This document shows positions 1,189 through 48,656 of a DNA stretch of 64,000 nt, in pieces. The stretch lies in contig JAGWLB010000002.1 of assembly GCA_028865035.1 (NCBI GenBank), forward strand, positions 49,531 to 113,530, read 5' to 3'. Origin of the DNA: Patescibacteria group bacterium. GTDB taxonomy: Bacteria; Patescibacteriota; Minisyncoccia; Phycocordibacterales; UBA9973. How positions within the stretch are numbered: position 1 is the stretch's first letter; the number at the start of each line of letters is the position of its first letter. A model generated the notes under the pieces. The model was not told the DNA's origin. It saw only the letters and a list, made by a program, of their open reading frames with translations, and searched no databases. A program made the position numbers and the translations under genes.

Positions 1189-1218
1189 AAAAAAAACAGC
1201 CGAAGCTGTTTTCTCTTG

Positions 1219-1301
1219 TGCGCCGGGAAGGATTCGAACCTTCGTAGGCCGAAGCCGACAGATTTACAGTCTGTTGTAATTGACCACTCTACCACCGACG
1301 C
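1219..1301 (-). tRNA. tRNA-Tyr(GTA)
   Basis: Cloverleaf on minus strand, anticodon arm acaga-ctGTAaa-tctgt, long variable arm, GTTCGAAT T-loop; CCA not encoded. Confidence 0.97.
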
Positions 1302-10329: not shown

Positions 10330-11367
10330 ATGTCAGAATTAAATATAGCATTATATAGAAAATATCGCCCAGAACGTTTCTCTGATGTGGTAGGGCAGGA
10401 TCATATAGTCAAAGCTATATCTGGCGCCCTTGCTGCTTCTAAGGTTGCCCATGCTTATCTGCTTTCGGGGCCACGTGGTACAGGCAAAACTACTATTGCT
10501 CGCATAGTTGCTCGCGAGTTAGAAACATCAGCCAATGATATCTATGAGATAGATGCAGCCTCAAACAGAGGTATAGATGAAGTTCGTAATATTCGTGAAA
10601 ATGTGAATACTATGCCTTTTGATTCCAAATACAAAGTTTATATTTTGGACGAAGTACATATGTTTACCAAAGATGCTTGGAATGCTCTTCTGAAAACTAT
10701 CGAAGAGCCACCTAAACATGTCATCTTTATCTTAGCAACAACTGAACTAGAAAAAATCCCTGAAACAATTGTTTCTCGATGTCAAACATTTATACTTAAA
10801 AAACCGACAGATATAATACTTTCACAAGTTGTAAAAAATGTTGCTTCTAAAGAAGGTTATGAATTACAAGCTGGAGGAGCAGAGCTTATAGCTGTACTTG
10901 CTGACGGAGCTTTTCGAGATGCTCTAGGTACACTTCAGAAAGTTATCTCCTATAGTAAAAGTAAAAAAATTACAAAGGAAGATATAGAAAAAGTAACAGG
11001 AGCACCAAGTACAACTTTGGTGAATGAATTCTTGGAAGCTTTAGCTTCGAATAATATAGAGAAAGGTTTCTTATCTATCAGACAAGCAAGCGAACAAGAT
11101 ATCGATATGAGTGTATATTTGAAAATGATTCTTACGAAACTTCGCTATGCCCTTATTCTTCGCTACGCACCAGCCGCCAAAGAATCAATAATCAATAGTA
11201 TTTCAGTCGAGGATTTAGAATTTATAGAAAATCTTATATCAACTAAACCTACACATATATCTTCAAATTCACTTTCCATACTGCTTGAAGCATATCAGTC
11301 ACTTAGAACTTCAGTTATAAGTGAAATACCTATAGAACTTGCGTTAGTAAGGATACTTAGCAATTAA
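10330..11367 (+). CDS. dnaX: DNA polymerase III subunit gamma/tau
   Basis: LYRKYRP, GPRGTGKTT, EIDAASN, DEVHM, SRCQ. Confidence 0.97.
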   Translation: MSELNIALYRKYRPERFSDVVGQDHIVKAISGALAASKVAHAYLLSGPRGTGKTTIARIVARELETSANDIYEIDAASNRGIDEVRNIRENVNTMPFDSKYKVYILDEVHMFTKDAWNALLKTIEEPPKHVIFILATTELEKIPETIVSRCQTFILKKPTDIILSQVVKNVASKEGYELQAGGAELIAVLADGAFRDALGTLQKVISYSKSKKITKEDIEKVTGAPSTTLVNEFLEALASNNIEKGFLSIRQASEQDIDMSVYLKMILTKLRYALILRYAPAAKESIINSISVEDLEFIENLISTKPTHISSNSLSILLEAYQSLRTSVISEIPIELALVRILSN

Positions 11368-11372
11368 GATAT

Positions 11373-12398
11373 TTAGCTTAATTTAATTTCTTTTTTATAT
11401 ATAGAGATCAGGCTATATAGCAAACTTAAAACAAGTGGTCCTATAAGGATACCCTCTGGGCCCATAAGCGAAATACCTCCTAGTATAGAGAATAGAATAA
11501 AAAATGGTGGCATCTCAGTTTTCTTAGAAATTATGAAAGGTGAGAGAAGGTCGTCTATGATTGCTACGAATCCGAGTGACCATACAAGAAGACCTATAGC
11601 TTGAACGTGCATTCCAGTGAAGAATAAGAAAAGTATTGCTGGAACGAATACTAAAGAAGTTCCAACTGTAGGCACAAAAGAAGCGATGCCTGCTGTTACT
11701 GCCCATAGTGTGGCATTGGGTACACCGAATATCATAAAGCCAATGCCAGTAAGAAATCCTTGGATAATAGCTATAATAAATGTGCCTTTAATAACTTGGT
11801 TGATAGTAGTATGAAGCTTAGAGAATATTTCATTTGTATTATTTTCTGAAATAGGCCATAACATAGAAAAACTTTTTTTCCATTCTTTTCCATTTCTTAA
11901 GAAATAAAAAATGGCTAAAATCATAAACATAAACATAATAATTGTTTGGATAGTAGCTGTGAAAAAACTTGTAGTGTTTTGAGAGATAAATGATACGATA
12001 TCCGCTGCTTTTGATTCAGTGTTTACAGACATACCTTGAGGTAAGACTTTATTTATAGAATTATCGAGAGTCTTAAAAAATGTATTATTTTGGTTACTTA
12101 CAGATGATATATAATCGTATGCATTATGTGTTTGTTTTAGCACGTTTGAGCCTATGAATAAGACTGGAGCACATAAAACAACAACAAAAAGTAATACTGT
12201 AAGGAAAGAAGCAACAGAAGAAAAACCAAAAGCAAGATGATGTTTAATCCATAAGTATACGGGGTCAAGAACAACTGCAAATGCAGCAGCCATAACAAGT
12301 ATTGTTATGAATGGATATAGAATCGCAAGCATTAGAAAAATAGTAATACCAAGCAGTGCGTAAAAAAAATACTTTTCAACTAAATGCGATGATTTCAT
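11373..12398 (-). CDS. AI-2E family transporter
   Basis: Multi-TM; 'FGVPNA.LW', 'P..G', 'GG...G..GILIGP' pattern. Confidence 0.88.
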   Translation of the reverse strand: MKSSHLVEKYFFYALLGITIFLMLAILYPFITILVMAAAFAVVLDPVYLWIKHHLAFGFSSVASFLTVLLFVVVLCAPVLFIGSNVLKQTHNAYDYISSVSNQNNTFFKTLDNSINKVLPQGMSVNTESKAADIVSFISQNTTSFFTATIQTIIMFMFMILAIFYFLRNGKEWKKSFSMLWPISENNTNEIFSKLHTTINQVIKGTFIIAIIQGFLTGIGFMIFGVPNATLWAVTAGIASFVPTVGTSLVFVPAILFLFFTGMHVQAIGLLVWSLGFVAIIDDLLSPFIISKKTEMPPFFILFSILGGISLMGPEGILIGPLVLSLLYSLISIYKKEIKLS

Positions 12399-12483
12399 AT
12401 GGGAATATTATATCATAGATAATTGCGTTATTTGTCTATTTGGTGTATTTTAAAGAGGTATTAATAGGGGATAATAAAAACAT

Positions 12484-12554
12484 TTGGGGATCGTCTAATG
12501 GTAGGACAGCGGCCTTTGAAGCCGTTAATTGGGGTTCGAATCCCTGTCCCCAAG
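12484..12554 (+). tRNA. tRNA-Gln(TTG)
   Basis: Cloverleaf, anticodon arm gcggc-ctTTGaa-gccgt, GTTCGAAT; CCA not encoded. Confidence 0.96.
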
Positions 12555-12578
12555 CAAAGTGAGCCAAGCGAGATTTGC

Positions 12579-12704
12579 TTGGGGAAGAAAGTGCATTGCA
12601 CTTTCGCCAGGGATGAGAAGACCTTGAGTGTATCGCACGTAGCAAAGCAAGTACGATACGAAAGGCGTACTGAATCTGTAGGATTCGAAACTCCCTGTCC
12701 CAAA
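12579..12704 (+). ncRNA. Structured element carrying antisense and sense copies of the tRNA-Gln 3' end
   Basis: ttgggga..caggga pairs with tccctgtcccaaa; three internal hairpins; same layout as 1071-1188. Confidence 0.6.
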
Positions 12705-12731
12705 GCCAATAATTTGTTTATAGTATTAAAT

Positions 12732-13121
12732 ATGAAAAAAGAAATAAAATTCACAGCTCTATTTGTAAAAGACATAAAAGATTTATTAAAAAGATTCCCT
12801 CCTAAGCATAAGAAAATTTTTGGACATCATTCAACGATTGAATTTCAACCAACTAGTCTAGATGGCATAGAAATAGGAAAAGAATGCAGTATAAAAATAA
12901 TAGGACGAGCTTGGGATGAATTTGGAGATGACCTTCTTGTTGAAAATTTAAAATCTAAAAATAAATACCCCCACATAACCGTGTCCCGAGCAGATAATGC
13001 TCCACCACTGTACTCAAAAATACTATTTGAAAAAACTGATATAGAATACTTTGATAATGAAGAAGTTAGGGTTATTGAAGGATATTCAGATGGGAATAAG
13101 TATATTACACAGAACCTATAG
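12732..13121 (+). CDS. 2H-phosphoesterase-like protein
   Basis: Two HxT motifs (HSTI, HITV); the ORF-track start at 12498 overlaps the tRNA and was trimmed. Confidence 0.6.
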   Translation: MKKEIKFTALFVKDIKDLLKRFPPKHKKIFGHHSTIEFQPTSLDGIEIGKECSIKIIGRAWDEFGDDLLVENLKSKNKYPHITVSRADNAPPLYSKILFEKTDIEYFDNEEVRVIEGYSDGNKYITQNL

Positions 13122-13237
13122 CTGTTCCAACTTCATCCCTGCCTGCGCAGGCAGGCCAGACTGTAAGCCAATAATTTGCTATAATATTAACTTATGGAAA
13201 AGAAAATTATTGTTATAACTTCTGGTATAATATTAAA

Positions 13238-13876
13238 ATGGAAGAACAACTCACTAATTATATTAAGGAAAAGTACAATCCATTAGCCATTGTATTACAT
13301 GGCTCACGTGCAAATGGGTACGCAAAGGAACATTCTGATTGGGACTTTTTAATTTTTACATATAAAGATGTTAACCCCGCAAGAGATATTAAATTTGGTG
13401 CAAATTTTGAAATAAAGCAAGTAATACTTCCTTTGTCTGATAATAAAATTAAGGAAGGTCTTGGTTTTTTATTTAGGACCGAAAATATAAAAATATTATA
13501 TGATAAAGATAGTATTGTTCCTGCTTTGCTTACTAAAAATGAAATAGTAATTGAAAAAGGAGACACGTTCAATGAGGTAGATAAACGTGCTCGATGTGCA
13601 TTTTTAAAATCAAGTTTAGATAGTATTGAAGATTATAAAAATAATGAGTTAATTGTTTTTTCCAAAAAGGCAATATTTTATAATAAGGTTGTGCCTACGT
13701 GGTTTAGATTTCTTCATAACGAATTCAAGCCCTCAGATTATTTAGCTCTACCTCGAATTAAAAGTGATGATCCAGAATTCTATAAATTACTTGAGGAGTT
13801 TATTGATGCAGATGCTGAGCAATCAATTCTTATTGGAAACAAAATGATCAATCATATTTTCTCAGATTTAGATTAA
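13238..13876 (+). CDS. Nucleotidyltransferase domain protein (Pol-beta/MNT-like)
   Basis: HGSRA.G....SDWD motif. Confidence 0.8.
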   Translation: MEEQLTNYIKEKYNPLAIVLHGSRANGYAKEHSDWDFLIFTYKDVNPARDIKFGANFEIKQVILPLSDNKIKEGLGFLFRTENIKILYDKDSIVPALLTKNEIVIEKGDTFNEVDKRARCAFLKSSLDSIEDYKNNELIVFSKKAIFYNKVVPTWFRFLHNEFKPSDYLALPRIKSDDPEFYKLLEEFIDADAEQSILIGNKMINHIFSDLD

Positions 13877-13966
13877 GAATTGTTTCAACTTCGCCTCAGA
13901 CGGTAAGCAAATAAAAACCACCGGAAATAAATTTGGTGGTTTAATAGAAGTTTCATTCAAATAATT

Positions 13967-14452
13967 TTAATCTTGGAATTTTTTGATTGCCTCGATTCTT
14001 ACAGAATCATCAAAAAATTCTTTTGGATTAATTATCCCGAGGTTGTCATCCACTAATTTAATATCAAGAGGTAAGACACCTGCAGTCGGAATAATTCCTC
14101 CGTTACCATCATCTGCACCAAACTTTGAAGAAATAAAATAAATAATTATTGTTTCTTCACCGCCGCATTGTTCAATCATGTAATTTACAATATTTATATC
14201 CTTGTTTGGCCATTTTTTTACCGGACCAATCATAATTATTTCAAAATTTTCAGGCTGATAAAAAAAATTACCAGGATCAGCATTTATAGGAAAATGAAAT
14301 TGTTTACCGGTCAAATCAAAATTTTTTGATTCACCATACCATTGTAACCAAACTTCATTACCATGTTTTTTTTCACGAAATAAGGTTGGTTTTTTTACAA
14401 TTTCTTTGCATGTTTGATGAACGGGCTCGCTCACTGGCTTAACTGTTTCCAT
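13967..14452 (-). CDS. Hypothetical protein
   Basis: 161-aa ORF with upstream TTGACA and downstream terminator, bounded by repeats. Confidence 0.6.
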   Translation of the reverse strand: METVKPVSEPVHQTCKEIVKKPTLFREKKHGNEVWLQWYGESKNFDLTGKQFHFPINADPGNFFYQPENFEIIMIGPVKKWPNKDINIVNYMIEQCGGEETIIIYFISSKFGADDGNGGIIPTAGVLPLDIKLVDDNLGIINPKEFFDDSVRIEAIKKFQD

Positions 14453-14582
14453 AATTTAACATTTTAATGGTTTATTTTATTGTTGGTTTTTCTTTACATT
14501 AACATTTACTACTTATTTGTCAACAATATCGTTTCAACTTCACCCCAGACGGTAAGCCAATAATTTGCTATAATACTAACTT

Positions 14583-43179: not shown

Positions 43180-43335
43180 ATATAAACAATGTTTGTTATT
43201 AATAAGATAAGCTATATTATACTTTAAGTTTGAAGATAATCCTATTTTTGCTTTTTTATCGATTTTTTGATAGTATTTGACTATTCAGGGGTCGGTTTAA
43301 TATCTATTTATTGACACTGTGTCCTGATAAAACAT

Positions 43336-43407
43336 TCCGGAGTAGCTCAGCGGTAGAGCAAGCGACTGTTAATCGCTTGGTCGCAGGTTCGATCCCTGCC
43401 TCCGGAG
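43336..43407 (+). tRNA. tRNA-Asn(GTT)
   Basis: Cloverleaf, anticodon arm agcga-ctGTTaa-tcgct, GTTCGATC; CCA not encoded. Confidence 0.97.
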
Positions 43408-43435
43408 CATTTAAAAATTTTATAAGAATGTAAAG

Positions 43436-43467
43436 AAAAAATCCTGCCTTTTAAAAGACAGGATTTA
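43436..43467. terminator. Terminator between tRNA-Asn and the converging ncRNA
   Basis: aaatcctgcc-ttttaaaa-gacaggattt; T tract on the minus strand. Confidence 0.7.
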
Positions 43468-43690
43468 AGATTGTGTGAACCCATAAGTAGACGTTTAACC
43501 GCGTCTGCTGGCACGTCAATTAGACACTTACTTTCTCTTAGCAACATTGGCATACGTTCCGTGTTAACTACTGGCTCACTTATAAAAAGTGTTATTCTTT
43601 GGGCGGTGTGTACAAGGACTGTTTTTACGCCCTATTAAAGCTCGCTTTCGCTCAGTCCCCCAAAGCACTTTATCTAAGGTACAATCTCAA
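43465..43690 (-). ncRNA. Putative 16S-rRNA-core-like small RNA
   Basis: Contains gtgccagcagacgcggttaa within a full helix 18, ccttgtacacaccgccc and taatagggcgtaaa; ends pair (ttgagattgt/acaatcttaa); -10-like box upstream and terminator downstream. Confidence 0.75.
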
Positions 43691-43808
43691 GACTATATTA
43701 GCATATTATACTCTTCCGAACATCCTCCCAGGTTTGGAGCCATACTTGACAAATTACTTTATATATTATATTTTAGAGTTAAATTGTTAAACTAAAAATT
43801 GAATAATT

Positions 43809-44312
43809 ATGAAAAAAGTTTTTCTTGTTCTTTTAATAACATACTCAATAGTATGTACAGGTTATATTATTTATCTAAAGTCACCTCTCAATGACCATGG
43901 GCATAGACTCTACGGAGTTAAGAATCCAAAAACTATGTTAGTTTTAGATTCAATATTCCGTGATGTAGCTAACCTTCATAGGGATTTGGTCTTTAAGGTT
44001 GGACCGAGTACTCAGGCAATTTACGACAACGGCAGAGTTGGCTTAAATTATATAAGCGACTCAACAGTGGATCTTCCATTATCTGGGCCCAGCTTCGTTG
44101 TCAGTAATCCAGAAGAATCAGCACAAAAAGCCGCTAGGATTCTAACCCGAAATGGATTTAATGCCAGAATTATTGTTAATTTTGACTCAACTTTATCCAA
44201 TAAATTAGTTTTACTTCAAAGTAACTCTATTAATTGGACACTTGTTTTTAGAAGAGATATTCTAAATATGGGCAAGAAACCAAAAGACATAGGTTTCGGA
44301 TGGGCAAAATGA
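43809..44312 (+). CDS. Hypothetical membrane-anchored protein
   Basis: N-terminal TM; own promoter and terminator. Confidence 0.65.
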   Translation: MKKVFLVLLITYSIVCTGYIIYLKSPLNDHGHRLYGVKNPKTMLVLDSIFRDVANLHRDLVFKVGPSTQAIYDNGRVGLNYISDSTVDLPLSGPSFVVSNPEESAQKAARILTRNGFNARIIVNFDSTLSNKLVLLQSNSINWTLVFRRDILNMGKKPKDIGFGWAK

Positions 44313-44477
44313 TTTTCAAAAAAAGATGATTTTTTTATTGAAGGAATCGTGTAACAACGATTCCTTTTTTATTTATCCATATCAACCAAACTCTTCCGAA
44401 CATCCTCCCAGGTTCGGAGCCTAAATTTTAATTTGATTTGTAAGAGGAAAATTGTATAATTAAAGAAAACTTTAGTA

Positions 44478-45125
44478 ATGGAATTAAATGTATCAAAACA
44501 GTATTATGAATCACTTGATTATACTGCCATTTCTTTAATAGAAACCGTTACCCGTTTTAATACTAATTGTGGAAGTATTAACAATATTATATCGACAGAA
44601 GATAACTTTCCTTTGAAAAGGAATCCGGGAGCTAATATTGAAGATTGGAATGGTTTTTTTGTTTCTCGTAATTTTAGATTTTTATTGAAGCTAAATTGTT
44701 TTGGAAAGATAATGGAAATTCCTTACCACAAAAATATTAGCACCCTAATTAGTTGTGCTAGATATGATGAAAAGTTTAATAATGTGGTAATAAATAATGA
44801 TTATTGTCTTAGAAAAGCCAATTTTCTGAAGTCAGTAACAAACCATCAGCTTTTTGGATATCTGTTTTCTAAATCAAATGAGCTATCAATAATGACACTG
44901 GACGATATCAGTTTCCTGTGGATGATTCTAAGTACACTCCTATTTCATGAAAATTTGCTAAATCATGGAGAATGGTGCCACAACGTATTTATGGGTTGGA
45001 AAAGAAATAGTCCTTTAATAGTTCAGAGAATTGGAAAATTATGGCATCTTTCAAATGATGAATTTTATCCTGAACATTCGTATCATGTAAAAGATGAAAC
45101 ATTATTTTTCCCGGTTATCAAGTGA
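44478..45125 (+). CDS. Hypothetical protein
   Basis: 215-aa ORF between repeat sites. Confidence 0.55.
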   Translation: MELNVSKQYYESLDYTAISLIETVTRFNTNCGSINNIISTEDNFPLKRNPGANIEDWNGFFVSRNFRFLLKLNCFGKIMEIPYHKNISTLISCARYDEKFNNVVINNDYCLRKANFLKSVTNHQLFGYLFSKSNELSIMTLDDISFLWMILSTLLFHENLLNHGEWCHNVFMGWKRNSPLIVQRIGKLWHLSNDEFYPEHSYHVKDETLFFPVIK

Positions 45126-45277
45126 TTATAAAGACACCATTTTATTTAACGGTGTCTTTTTAATAATATCTAGAACATTTTCCAATCTTTTCTTAATTTT
45201 ATTCCAATTAGAATTCTGAACTTGTCCACTAAAGCGAGCCAGATAGATTCTCGTTAAAGTTTTGATATAATAAACTT

Positions 45278-45832
45278 ATGAGAAAAATAATTGTACAAGA
45301 AATGATTAGTGTTGATGGATTTTTTGCTGGAGAAAACGGTGAAATAGATTGGCATAATGTGGATGCCGAATTTAATAAATATGCTATTGAATTTCTTAAT
45401 ACCATAGATTCTTTGTTGTTTGGCCGCATTACTTATGAACTCATGGCAAGTTATTGGCCTACAGAAGCTGCTTTAAATGATGACCAAATCGTTGCTTCTA
45501 AAATGAATAATCTTTCGAAAATTGTTTTTTCTAAAACCAGGAATATATTAGAATGGAATAACTCAAAAGTGTTTTCTGAAATTAATGCAGAAGAAATAAA
45601 AAAATTAAAACAAACTGAAGGTAAGGATATTGCCATATTTGGCAGTGGTACTATTGTATCTGAACTTACCAAACTAAGATTAATTGATGAGTATCGGCTT
45701 ATTGTAAATCCTATAGTTCTTGGTAAGGGTAAGTCATTATTTTCATATATAGAAAAAAGATACAAGTTACAGCTCGTAAAAGTAGAAAAGTTTAAATCAG
45801 GAAATGTTTCCCTTCACTACAGTCTTTTATAG
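45278..45832 (+). CDS. Dihydrofolate reductase family (RibD C-terminal) protein
   Basis: SVDGF, LFGRITYE, KIVFS, GKDI.IFGSG, LIDEY.L.V.PIVLG.GK.LF. Confidence 0.92.
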   Translation: MRKIIVQEMISVDGFFAGENGEIDWHNVDAEFNKYAIEFLNTIDSLLFGRITYELMASYWPTEAALNDDQIVASKMNNLSKIVFSKTRNILEWNNSKVFSEINAEEIKKLKQTEGKDIAIFGSGTIVSELTKLRLIDEYRLIVNPIVLGKGKSLFSYIEKRYKLQLVKVEKFKSGNVSLHYSLL

Positions 45833-45929
45833 AATCAATAAGGGTTAAGAACATTTAATAATACTCTTCCGAACATAATCCAAGGTTTGGATCTTGTTAA
45901 TTTTGTAGTAGAGATGTTATATTTCTATC

Positions 45930-46403
45930 ATGGAAGAAAGAGATACAGAAGGAGCTTTTAGATGGATTGTAAATATAATTAAAAAACATAATATACCTTT
46001 TCAGATAAAAGGTGGTTTTGCTTCACGTCTATATGGAGTAAAAAGGGAACTGGCTGATATTGATATATCTATCCCAGAGAATAGATTTGATGAATTAATT
46101 CCTGAAATAAAAGAGTTTATTGTATATGGACCAGAACAATATTTAGATGATGAATGGGATATAAAACTCATAACTCTAACTTACAAAAATCAGGATATAG
46201 ATATAGCAGGAGCATATAAAAAGAAAAACTTTGATAAGATGAACCAGAAATGGGTAAATATACCGACTAACTTTGATACTAGTGTGTATATGGATGTATA
46301 TGGTTTAAATGTACCAGTGATTTCTAAGACAGACCTAATAAATTACAAGAAACTCATTCAAAGAGATGTAGATATATTTGATATTAATGCTTTAAGTAAG
46401 TAA
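45930..46403 (+). CDS. Nucleotidyltransferase-superfamily protein
   Basis: GGFA...YG..R..ADIDI motif; LINYK....R..D..D. Confidence 0.7.
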   Translation: MEERDTEGAFRWIVNIIKKHNIPFQIKGGFASRLYGVKRELADIDISIPENRFDELIPEIKEFIVYGPEQYLDDEWDIKLITLTYKNQDIDIAGAYKKKNFDKMNQKWVNIPTNFDTSVYMDVYGLNVPVISKTDLINYKKLIQRDVDIFDINALSK

Positions 46404-46516
46404 CTTAATATTCTTCAGAACATAGTCTCAGAATTGTAGTTTAGTGAATTTGTAAACGTTATTAATTTTAAATAAGTACTTACATATATGTAAACTTTTA
46501 TGATATAGTCATTGTT

Positions 46517-47119
46517 ATGATAAAAGTATTAATTTTTGATGCTGACGGTGTTCTCATAAATGGTGAGATGTTCAGTAAAATACTTGCTAAAGAATACGGA
46601 ATCTCAACCGAAATAACAGAACCATTTTTTGACGGACCTTTTAGTGAGTGCTTAGTTGGTAATATTGATTTGAAAGAAGCTATTTCTCCATATTTAGAAG
46701 GTTGGGGATGGAAAACAGGTGTGGATAGTTTCCTAGATTATTGGTTTTCTGCAGAGCACTCTATTGATCAAGATTTGATTGCATATATTCAAGAATGTAG
46801 AAAGAGGGGAATCAAGTGCTATGTTGCAACCAATCAAGAAAAGCATCGAGCTGAGTATATGCTTGATAAATTAGGATTTGTAAATAACTTTGATAAGCTT
46901 TATGCTTCTGCGCATTTAGGGCATAAAAAACCAAGTTTGGATTTCTATGAAAAATTAGTAAACGATCTCGACGGCATAAATAAAGAAGAAATCCTATTTT
47001 GGGATGATTCACCTAAAAATATAACGGCCGCACGACAATTTGGAATTAATGCAGAATTATATACTACTTTTGAAGATTTTAATAAGAGAATGAAGATTTA
47101 TCCTGATTTTGATAAGTAA
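46517..47119 (+). CDS. HAD-IA family hydrolase
   Basis: FDADGVL, ATN, KKP, FWDD...N. Confidence 0.92.
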   Translation: MIKVLIFDADGVLINGEMFSKILAKEYGISTEITEPFFDGPFSECLVGNIDLKEAISPYLEGWGWKTGVDSFLDYWFSAEHSIDQDLIAYIQECRKRGIKCYVATNQEKHRAEYMLDKLGFVNNFDKLYASAHLGHKKPSLDFYEKLVNDLDGINKEEILFWDDSPKNITAARQFGINAELYTTFEDFNKRMKIYPDFDK

Positions 47120-47236
47120 TACTAATTCGAATATCCTATCTATTCTTCTAAGCGAGCAAATAAAAAACCCTGTTATAGGGTTTTACGGCAATTTAAAATC
47201 TTAAGTAATATGTATATATTTATAATTATGACTATA

Positions 47237-47422
47237 TTACCTGCGAATCTTATCAGAAGGCTTAATATTTAGTCTTCTTAAGATTTCACTTTTTAATTGG
47301 CTTTTGTCAAATGGGCTTTTACCATTTCCATTATCTTTAGCGTCTAATTCTATAGAACGCTGAAAATTATCTAACAATTGTTGATTAGATAAAGCTTCTA
47401 GCTCCTTTTTATTCATACTCAT
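47237..47422 (-). CDS. Hypothetical small protein
   Basis: 61-aa ORF with TTGACA/TATAAT upstream. Confidence 0.5.
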   Translation of the reverse strand: MSMNKKELEALSNQQLLDNFQRSIELDAKDNGNGKSPFDKSQLKSEILRRLNIKPSDKIRR

Positions 47423-47510
47423 TTTAAATTATTTAAATGAAAAATATTGATTTAATTTATTGGAATATTATATCTTAATCTAAAAAATGTCAAAATGACT
47501 AAATATTACA

Positions 47511-48656
47511 TTATTGATATTGTATAAAGCTTGGTTGGGGTTCTAATTCTAGTATTTGCTTGGGTGTAAGAAGTGCGTGCGTTGGTGCGACGAGATCTGT
47601 TTTATAGAATAGTTTAATGCCTGTAAACTGTACTGGTTCATTGCTTATTATTCCATTATAAATATGAATTTTCTTTTCTGGTGTACTCCATCCATCCATA
47701 TCCATAACAATCTGAACTTCTGGTAGGGGAGTTATCTTTTTATAGTTAGTAACCATATTTTCAGTAAAACGATGCACAATAAGAACTTTCGGTGGAAGAT
47801 TATATTTTTTAACTAGAGAGGCTAAGTAATTTGCAGTATAATTAATATCCGTTGCGTCCATAGTGCCGATAATTGTACCAGGGCGCCTGTCGTTCTTCAT
47901 TGAGAATTCTGGATCTAAAGCTAGTTCTACTTGTGGAAGTTTAAGATATTCTTCCAGAAGGGGAATTTCTGTTTGCACATTACTTTTACCTACTTGCACA
48001 TCAAGTATAACTATTCCATTAATCTGTTCGGCAAGTGCAATTGCTTTTTGAATCTGGTCTGCTGGCATACGAGCACGATATTTATTATCAGCACCTGGGC
48101 TCGATTGAGCTGTAACTGTAACATAATCAATAGCAGGTATAACAGGAGTACTGGGATCAGCTTTTTTCCATTCGTCGACAGCATTTTGGAGTCTCCGTAA
48201 AACTTCTTGCGGAGGGTATTCCCCAAGTATCCCCATTTTAGTTGAATAGAAGTTACCGTAATATGCAACGATGCGATTGAATGGTAGAAGAGCTCCTCCT
48301 ATCGGATAGATTCCTTTAACAGGCCATAATGGTACAGCAGAGGGTATAGAATTGGTAGTTGTTGAAACCTTTGAGATGGGAGAAACAGGGGTTGGAGGAA
48401 CATTTGCTATCTGAAGTAACTTTGCATCGTATGCCACCTTGTCTAAAACAGCTACTGCCACAGGAGCAATAGAGGTAACACTTTTTGTGTTATTTTGTGT
48501 AGTTGAGTTATATCGAATTGTAAGTAAACTAGAAGAACTTATAAAATATGCAGTAGCATAAATAATAATCACCCCACAAAAAATCCAAGCAGTTGCTTGA
48601 AAATATTTGTTCTTGAAAATATGATTCTTTTTGGTTTGCTTAGTAGCATTCGGCAT
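47511..48656 (-). CDS. Membrane-anchored conserved hypothetical protein (possible hydrolase)
   Basis: TM, then 'RIVAYYG...MGILGE', 'LDVQVG', 'ALDPEF', 'MDGW', 'GIKLFYK.D'; start trimmed to the ATG at 48656. Confidence 0.75.
   Translation of the reverse strand: MPNATKQTKKNHIFKNKYFQATAWIFCGVIIIYATAYFISSSSLLTIRYNSTTQNNTKSVTSIAPVAVAVLDKVAYDAKLLQIANVPPTPVSPISKVSTTTNSIPSAVPLWPVKGIYPIGGALLPFNRIVAYYGNFYSTKMGILGEYPPQEVLRRLQNAVDEWKKADPSTPVIPAIDYVTVTAQSSPGADNKYRARMPADQIQKAIALAEQINGIVILDVQVGKSNVQTEIPLLEEYLKLPQVELALDPEFSMKNDRRPGTIIGTMDATDINYTANYLASLVKKYNLPPKVLIVHRFTENMVTNYKKITPLPEVQIVMDMDGWSTPEKKIHIYNGIISNEPVQFTGIKLFYKTDLVAPTHALLTPKQILELEPQPSFIQYQ

Follow-up and report, generated by a model that had tools for sequence, protein, structure and literature searches.

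Integrons, which rely on the integrase IntI and attC sites, hold rows of small one-gene cassettes in the same orientation behind a fixed entry point. Here, we describe a row of six small gene units behind a tRNA-Asn gene in a stretch of 64,000 nucleotides from a Patescibacteria group bacterium (GenBank assembly GCA_028865035.1, contig JAGWLB010000002.1, positions 49,531–113,530 of the forward strand; this whole stretch is called the window), the boundaries of which point to a large serine recombinase (LSR). The closest described systems are of island size. Behind the ssrA gene of Dehalococcoides, a serine integrase of ∼540 amino acids, DsiB, is encoded on the reverse strand with its 3′ end overlapping attL, so that the stop codon is located within either the RNA gene or the adjacent island (PMC3146451; this and the other papers are cited for the portions of their text consulted). 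Islands stand in tandem behind one RNA gene, 15 of 31 have no integration module and, according to the authors, the full enzyme may be made solely from the circle or behind another island (PMC3146451). The target is the tmRNA gene with crossover in the T-loop, and the islands carry a six-gene module (with DsiA, ParBc and Mom) as well as a direct repeat of 20 bp from the end of the gene (PMC3146451). In the tandems of the staphylococcal cassette chromosome (SCC), the LSRs CcrAB and CcrC act at rlmH on cassettes of 17–68 kb with degenerate inverted-repeat half-sites around GA, and the outermost cassette is assumed to be the oldest (PMC11470126, PMC13739063). SCC cassettes without a recombinase of their own are excised singly or together in trans, as has been shown experimentally (PMC11470126).

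Each of the six units of the window is closed by a 26 nt motif, which in the last unit is decayed and 32 nt long. The repeats match the coding sequence of the LSR tail in relatives and are very probably LSR attachment arms. As the motif encodes this tail, the row was likely stacked by an LSR acting from another element, and we give a probability of roughly three in four to the reading that the repeats are element-side arms and that the six units are recombinase-less cassettes stacked in this way at the end of the tRNA-Asn gene. The integron-like layout is thus likely to have been made by a different class of enzyme. The small, mostly one-gene units of one orientation lie behind a fixed entry point and their content varies between genomes, as in an integron, but there is no IntI, the boundaries are 26 nt arms tied to a serine recombinase and the entry point is the end of a tRNA gene. 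With Dehalococcoides the arrays of the genus share an antisense serine integrase that overlaps attL, tandem units and the presence of integrase-less ones (PMC3146451); they differ in their target (the last bases of tRNA-Asn), in a core of mostly 5–7 bp with neither tmRNA nor a 20 bp repeat, in a scar that is the integrase's own tail and in units of ∼1 kb, mostly with one gene. With SCC they share LSR-bounded tandem cassettes at the 3′ end of one gene; the anchor is tRNA-Asn and not rlmH, and the consulted portions of PMC11470126 and PMC13739063 report no att arm encoding the recombinase tail. The row works like the Dehalococcoides and SCC systems, is laid out like an integron, and departs from each of them in target, enzyme or site. 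Tycheposons were considered as the closest kin and rejected. These integrative elements likewise target tRNAs, carry modules for replication and cargo and seed islands, but 910 of 937 rely on a tyrosine recombinase and partial tRNA copies are left behind (10.1101/2020.12.28.424599), in contrast to the LSRs found here and the lack of a long tRNA copy at the far end.

Read antisense, in the frame of the integrase, the motif consensus is LRTWDDVR. In 64 matrix-selected sites, variability in this frame is 0.21 at the third codon position versus 0.055 and 0.068 at the other two, and 109 of 171 changes are synonymous or exchange Asp and Glu, compared with 15–46% in the five other frames. An LSR reading frame runs through the motif at five of 166 exact sites and ends in LRTWDDVR. 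A cargo gene sits just upstream in these cases, as is expected if a later unit entered ahead of the element; insertion at an inner arm would look alike. LSR genes are thus found in frame with the tRNA gene in some cases and with the motif in others, the junction being the same GGAGC. The tails of 120 LSR homologues were classified by regular expression, without a check of the DNA behind them: 81 end at most about two residues from the junction, 11 continue as tRNA antisense, seven are of the W..VR type, 13 are D.FRT-like and eight are unclassified. Arm 3 of the window (LALVDKFRI) reads as a D.FRT-like tail.

The enzymes themselves are found at the tRNA junction in relatives. A BLAST search located tRNA-Asn in 62 of the 93 genomes of the genus, and most of these places were fetched; the resulting 59 loci comprise 56 read by ARAGORN (including the window) and three with an intron-bearing tRNA, ARAGORN having missed tRNA-Asn in four fetched stretches. 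A full LSR gene ends antisense inside tRNA-Asn in 14 of the 59 loci (12 of the 56 and two of the three, respectively). Partial LSRs occur in five more, of which three are cut by contig ends and two are remnants of 117 and 161 amino acids; one of the latter (G108) is followed by cargo and an arm. At the far end of eight of the 14 full elements, 9.5–19.3 kb away, lies an arm of the same motif, mostly followed by further small units. Pfam identifies a Resolvase domain in eight of eight proteins tested, a Recombinase domain in seven and a zinc ribbon in three, and a catalytic motif of the Y-x-R-x-S type is displayed for 17 of 18 proteins; residues Tyr14, Arg16 and Ser18 are invariant. A search of solved structures gave one weak match, 3g13. 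Judged from their N-terminal sequences, other genes of these elements are presumably primase–polymerase-like, restriction–modification-like and terminase-like.

The two element ends share a core that ranges from GGAGC to CGGAGCA in five of the six elements compared and extends to 12 nt in the sixth (G016). This places the crossover at the last bases of the tRNA gene, and cores ending in CAGC, AAGC and CGAGC in related arrays would narrow it to AGC. GGAGC is all that the motif has in common with the tRNA end, and the TTCGA box starts 26 nt before the end of the core in the arms and 21 nt before it in the tRNA. A 5 bp shift of a distal motif between attP and attB has been described for serine integrases (PMC3783163), and the 26 and 21 nt left arms correspond to such a shift: as in the A118 and LI integrases of Listeria, the host arm has its distal motif 5 bp nearer to the crossover than the element arm does, and the relatives' enzymes have the same domain order of resolvase, recombinase and zinc ribbon (PMC3783163). 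In A118 and LI both arms are constrained and attL is not reused, whereas here the left arms alone fit, the right arms vary and the tRNA junction is apparently reused (PMC3783163). In the window, the 21 nt host-side arm is the likely integration target, with crossover probably within AGC.

The spacing recurs away from tRNA-Asn. Two arrays of the genus (G061 and G085) begin after a protein gene and not a tRNA, and both are headed by a 21 nt box-to-core sequence, which on the face of the sequence is an independent fit to the arm rule. These places (L101:7203 and L105:5776) look like a secondary, non-tRNA entry site with tRNA-like spacing and cassettes behind it; the preceding gene is presumably aldolase-like. 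The initial annotation had grouped the row with an array behind tRNA-Gln(TTG) (window 12484–14560), and the two are indeed of one kind: the Gln array obeys the 21/26 rule, with 26 nt arms ending at ∼13908 and 14557, antisense LTVWGEVET and the core AAGC. Elsewhere in the genome, on contig C16, arm-like 26 nt sequences lie ∼2.0 kb behind a tRNA called Ser(ACT) (10939–13010) and 5.0 kb behind tRNA-Gln(CTG) (43237–48300), and each likely marks another array.

To rank the sites of the window, a family-1 matrix trained on 61 sites from other genomes was run over 1.47 million positions of the 735 kb genome. The first three family-1 sites, ending at 43740, 44420 and 45893, score 49.8, 50.2 and 27.6 bits, and the next-best position in the genome scores 8.1. 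The site ending at 46440 reaches 2.9 bits on the 26-column matrix, a score equalled or exceeded by 15 genome positions. These are the four 28-mers quoted in the initial annotation, which we recover at 43713–43740, 44393–44420, 45866–45893 and 46413–46440, each between two genes. All sites are on the plus strand, one per gene boundary, and their right arm ends like tRNA-Asn, as had been noted. Of two further copies described as degenerate, that at 47126–47157 has a strong left part (19.2 bits, fourth in the genome) and is as a whole 6 nt too long, while 45214–45239 belongs to a second motif family, of which it is the sole match in the genome; 14 further second-family arms are present among the fetched tRNA-Asn loci.

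Among relatives, the motif with no more than three mismatches occurs in 52 of 93 congeners (reversed control, none), and with no more than two mismatches in seven of 301 genomes sampled from the class. Exact copies were found in at least 157 stretches of the genome collection, mostly from Patescibacteria lineages or unclassified bacteria with few other names, and in no viral contigs. At least one site lies downstream of tRNA-Asn in 31 of the 59 loci, several contigs stopping soon past the tRNA, and in the 56 ARAGORN-read loci 47 sites are in forward orientation, with none reversed and none upstream of the tRNA.

The units are cassette-like. In relatives, 121 units have a median length of 943 bp (overlooked weak sites would merge units); 91 are no longer than 1.6 kb and 67 have one open reading frame (ORF). 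In units of up to 3 kb, 123 of 142 ORFs are on the tRNA strand. In one array (G097), the units of ranks 2 and 10 are duplicates over their whole length (92.6%). A unit of 1090 bp aligns end to end with the distal portion of a unit from a different genome. The rank of NYN-type cargo differs among five loci, and related cargo stands beside different neighbours in other genomes. The description of tRNA-anchored, single-gene units whose content differs between genomes at site boundaries, with no recombinase in the row, thus holds. Read-derived contigs from four runs contain one joint, 44420 to 45242, in which a family-1 arm directly precedes unit 4 of the window at the place where the window has the second-family arm 3. 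This joint rests on one contig of run X6 with a 24 nt side (85% likeness), so that it marks a boundary and does not show excision of unit 3.

From these data we infer mobility in trans and an order of insertion. A circle carrying an arm, GGAGC and a leader would recombine with the end of the tRNA gene, with crossover within AGC. The tRNA would stay whole and the arm would be left at the far end of the inserted unit. The new tRNA junction could then be used again, pushing older units outwards. Cassettes may arise through internal deletion of larger elements or through excision between adjacent arms. Two forms of the enzyme would result: one with the W-D-D-V-R tail, gained by the integrase in the circle or when another unit precedes it, and one that mostly stops after two or three residues where the gene adjoins the tRNA.

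A number of observations weigh against this assignment. No conserved motif is found at +16 to +24 of the right-hand arms, which is non-canonical for a serine integrase. A TTCGAAC box lies instead at +56–60 in many cassette leaders and at +69 or +78–79 inside LSR genes, and none was scored in the leaders of the window. No circle junctions were seen in the read-derived contigs and no recombination was observed. Among the full elements, G017 has no arm in 47 kb, G021 has only a 10.5-bit arm, and four contigs stop after 2–11 kb. The LSRs at tRNA-Asn are 20–70% identical and fall into two deep clades (a midpoint-rooted tree of 18 proteins, with none left out), yet they have common arms, and neither of the two LSRs of this genome exceeds 38% identity to them, so that the genome has no close Asn-type enzyme. 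Selection of the site sets with a pattern or a matrix restricts the variation that they contain. For two window cargo genes, homologues are present in other families (five of 300 other genomes of the order); none of the five loci has an Asn-type arm nearby, and two of them lie near tRNA-Trp and tRNA-Pro. Arm decay with distance from the tRNA, as the initial annotation had it, is clear in the window and elsewhere is a weak trend: 13 of 21 arrays have a better first than last arm (Wilcoxon p = 0.037; Spearman −0.21, p = 0.076; related genomes are not independent).

Some regularity exists in the leaders. Non-coding cassettes have a conserved leader with the box at +56–60 (15 sites, eight tRNA junctions), and box spacings of +58, +69 and +79 fit helical turns, as far as positions in the sequence can tell. 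Extrusion of the terminator hairpin might bring the distal box into place and restore symmetry; the distance minus the folded span is 10–51 nt over 35 leaders. A second leader type mirrors the end of the host tRNA and has two hairpins. Most leaders, including those scored in the window, are of neither type.

The best-surviving alternative accepts the arms as LSR attachment scars but takes the small units to be unable to move by themselves: they would be eroded remains of larger elements stacked at the tRNA, which now move with a neighbour or are shuffled only through homologous recombination. The LSR remnants at the tRNA fit this, in particular the one in G108 with cargo and an arm behind it, as do the window leaders without a distal box, the decay of three of the six window arms and the lack of a close LSR in the genome; integrase-less 'cis-mobilizable' islands are moreover described in PMC3146451. 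Erosion is harder to reconcile with a leader and box conserved in non-coding cassettes, with a whole-unit duplicate within one array and with common cargo at different ranks, and Ccr excises recombinase-less tandem cassettes in trans in staphylococci (PMC11470126). On balance, we regard erosion as unlikely, and prefer cassettes stacked by an LSR in trans.

The sites were initially described as dif-like, with 11 bp inverted arms around a 6 bp spacer, and as targets of a tyrosine recombinase. In dif and pdif sites, XerCD performs the exchange within the 6 bp spacer of this 11–6–11 arrangement. Some symmetry is present: a 7 bp partial dyad (TTCGAAC/GTTCGGA) is kept in family 1. The pairing is only partial: of the 11 possible pairs, eight, seven, seven, three and one are present in five tested sites of the window, and the mean over 64 sites is 6.5. 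The second-family arm accounts for the single pair and has the same 26 nt spacing as family 1, and the tRNA end has no such dyad. None of 66 changed dyad pairs is restored, which is weak evidence by itself because a dyad-binding protein needs no compensation. The common GGAGC core lies at the end of the site and not in the spacer, and LSR genes are fused in frame to the motif. The sole tyrosine recombinase of the genome is XerC/D-like, is encoded among core genes on another contig, matches XerD and XerC best and scores 133.9 bits against a cut-off of 265 for TIGR02249 (integron integrase). A phmmer search of 1806 reading frames over 914 kb found no tyrosine recombinase near the arrays, although its single query, this Xer-like protein, can miss distant ones; LSR genes occupy the tRNA junction instead. 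The action of a host XerC/D-like or other tyrosine recombinase on dif-like targets is therefore very improbable, and the data do not support this part of the initial annotation. Its view that the system is based on neither attC nor pdif is upheld by 26 nt sites that have no compensatory pairing and depart from the 11–6–11 geometry, no attC model scan having been made.

A role of the motif as an operator for a regulator, or as a small REP-like repeat in front of accessory genes, hardly merits consideration either. Promoter-consensus matches on the plus strand start 1–23 nt past four sites, which agrees with an operator and with the earlier proposal that the cargo has its own promoters, but these are consensus matches only and the region has 20 of them versus 21.1 expected. 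The matrix scan places no copy in front of other genes of the genome, and in 56 loci none occurs on the opposite strand or upstream of the tRNA. Neither codon-like variation nor in-frame fusion to an LSR is explained by this reading.

If recombinase-less cassettes are indeed stacked by an LSR, genomes of ∼0.7 Mb without an integron integrase have a route by which to gain and drop single accessory genes, and the 26 nt arm, readable as an integrase tail, provides a sequence rule for dividing variable regions into units. In the accepted view, serine integrases work in one direction and require two matched arms. An enzyme able to reuse the site that it has produced would put this view to the test and could be employed to stack genes stepwise at a single locus. 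With two natural forms of the tail, the overlap between attachment site and integrase tail, a matter left open in Dehalococcoides, could also be tested. Given the precedents at island scale, the step beyond lies in the single-gene scale and the anatomy of the arms. More speculatively, and with the odds rather against it, the arrays may be the serine-recombinase counterpart of the integron: a pool of ∼1 kb cassettes shared among Patescibacteria and inserted repeatedly at tRNA 3′ ends by divergent serine integrases that read the left arm and core only, with their form switched by swapping the C-terminal tail across the attachment site and without a separate directionality factor. We found no published account of such arrays in Patescibacteria in a search mainly of openly available texts and abstracts, without supplements; the consulted portion of PMC13323075 has nothing on them.

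The features of the row are listed in Table 1.

Table 1. Features of the unit row behind tRNA-Asn in window coordinates; P and B denote element-side and host-side arms as assigned here.
Feature	Position	Strand	Remarks
tRNA-Asn(GTT)	43336..43408	+	Anchor of the row; genomic end GGAGC
Host-side (B) arm, putative	43388..43408	+	21 nt, TTCGA box through end of GGAGC
Unit 1	43409..43740	+	332 bp; without convincing protein gene
P arm 1, family 1	43715..43740	+	26 nt; antisense LQTWEDVRK
Unit 2 cargo, 167-aa orphan with hydrophobic N-terminus	43809..44312	+	Unit 43741–44420, 680 bp; no family
P arm 2, family 1	44395..44420	+	Antisense LRTWEDVRK
Unit 3 cargo, 215-aa orphan	44478..45125	+	Unit 44421–45239, 819 bp
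P arm 3, second family	45214..45239	+	26 nt, no dyad; antisense LALVDKFRI (relatives: LPLVDKFRTLNW)
Unit 4 cargo, RibD_C/dihydrofolate-reductase-like, 184 aa	45278..45832	+	PF01872, E = 2e-22; unit 45240–45893, 654 bp
P arm 4, family 1, partly decayed	45868..45893	+	Antisense IQTLDYVRK
Unit 5 cargo, nucleotidyltransferase-like, 157 aa	45930..46403	+	PF10706, E = 8e-4, 20 bits (cut-off 21); unit 45894–46440, 547 bp
P arm 5, family 1, strongly decayed	46415..46440	+	2.9 bits, weak alone
Unit 6 cargo, HAD-family hydrolase, 200 aa	46517..47119	+	Unit 46441–47157, 717 bp
P arm 6, decayed	47126..47157	+	6 nt longer than other arms; then terminator-like hairpin 47164–47184

The cargo is largely as first described. 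Pfam-type family scans confirm the two orphans and the dihydrofolate-reductase-like and HAD proteins; the nucleotidyltransferase does match PF10706, but just below the cut-off. No relatives of the unit 2 orphan were found in metagenome contigs. A non-coding RNA had been proposed for unit 1; this is not confirmed, the unit having no Rfam match and a folding energy like that of shuffled sequences (z = −0.77). The GC content of unit 1 is 38.6%, compared with 28–33% in the other units.

Some further observations concern the leaders and tRNAs of this and related genomes. Many leaders open with TTGAC right after the core (L010, L020, L036/L074 and L093), followed ∼40–50 nt on by GTTCTTTGA, which we take to resemble an antitermination box. 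Many tRNAs of the genome (for example window 1218–1301, and also L026, L029 and L047) are followed by a terminator hairpin and then by a mirrored copy of their own 3′ end that holds a second hairpin. This mirrored end tracks the tRNA allele of the host and may be a host-type right arm. In the three congeners with an intron-bearing tRNA-Asn (L093:14446–14815, L097 and L112:9453–10088), which the default tRNA search missed, the intron is several hundred bases long and in one of them apparently holds an ORF. As to the genome's own LSR genes, one (contig C12 201481–203247; L071:5482–7248) ends antisense inside tRNA-Ser(GGA), and the contig stops just past the start of the gene. The other encodes 438 amino acids in a fetched stretch without a tRNA and lies, in the region 20026–26972 of contig C8 (L072), upstream of a four-gene block that includes an ATPase-like protein of 564 amino acids and resembles a defence island.

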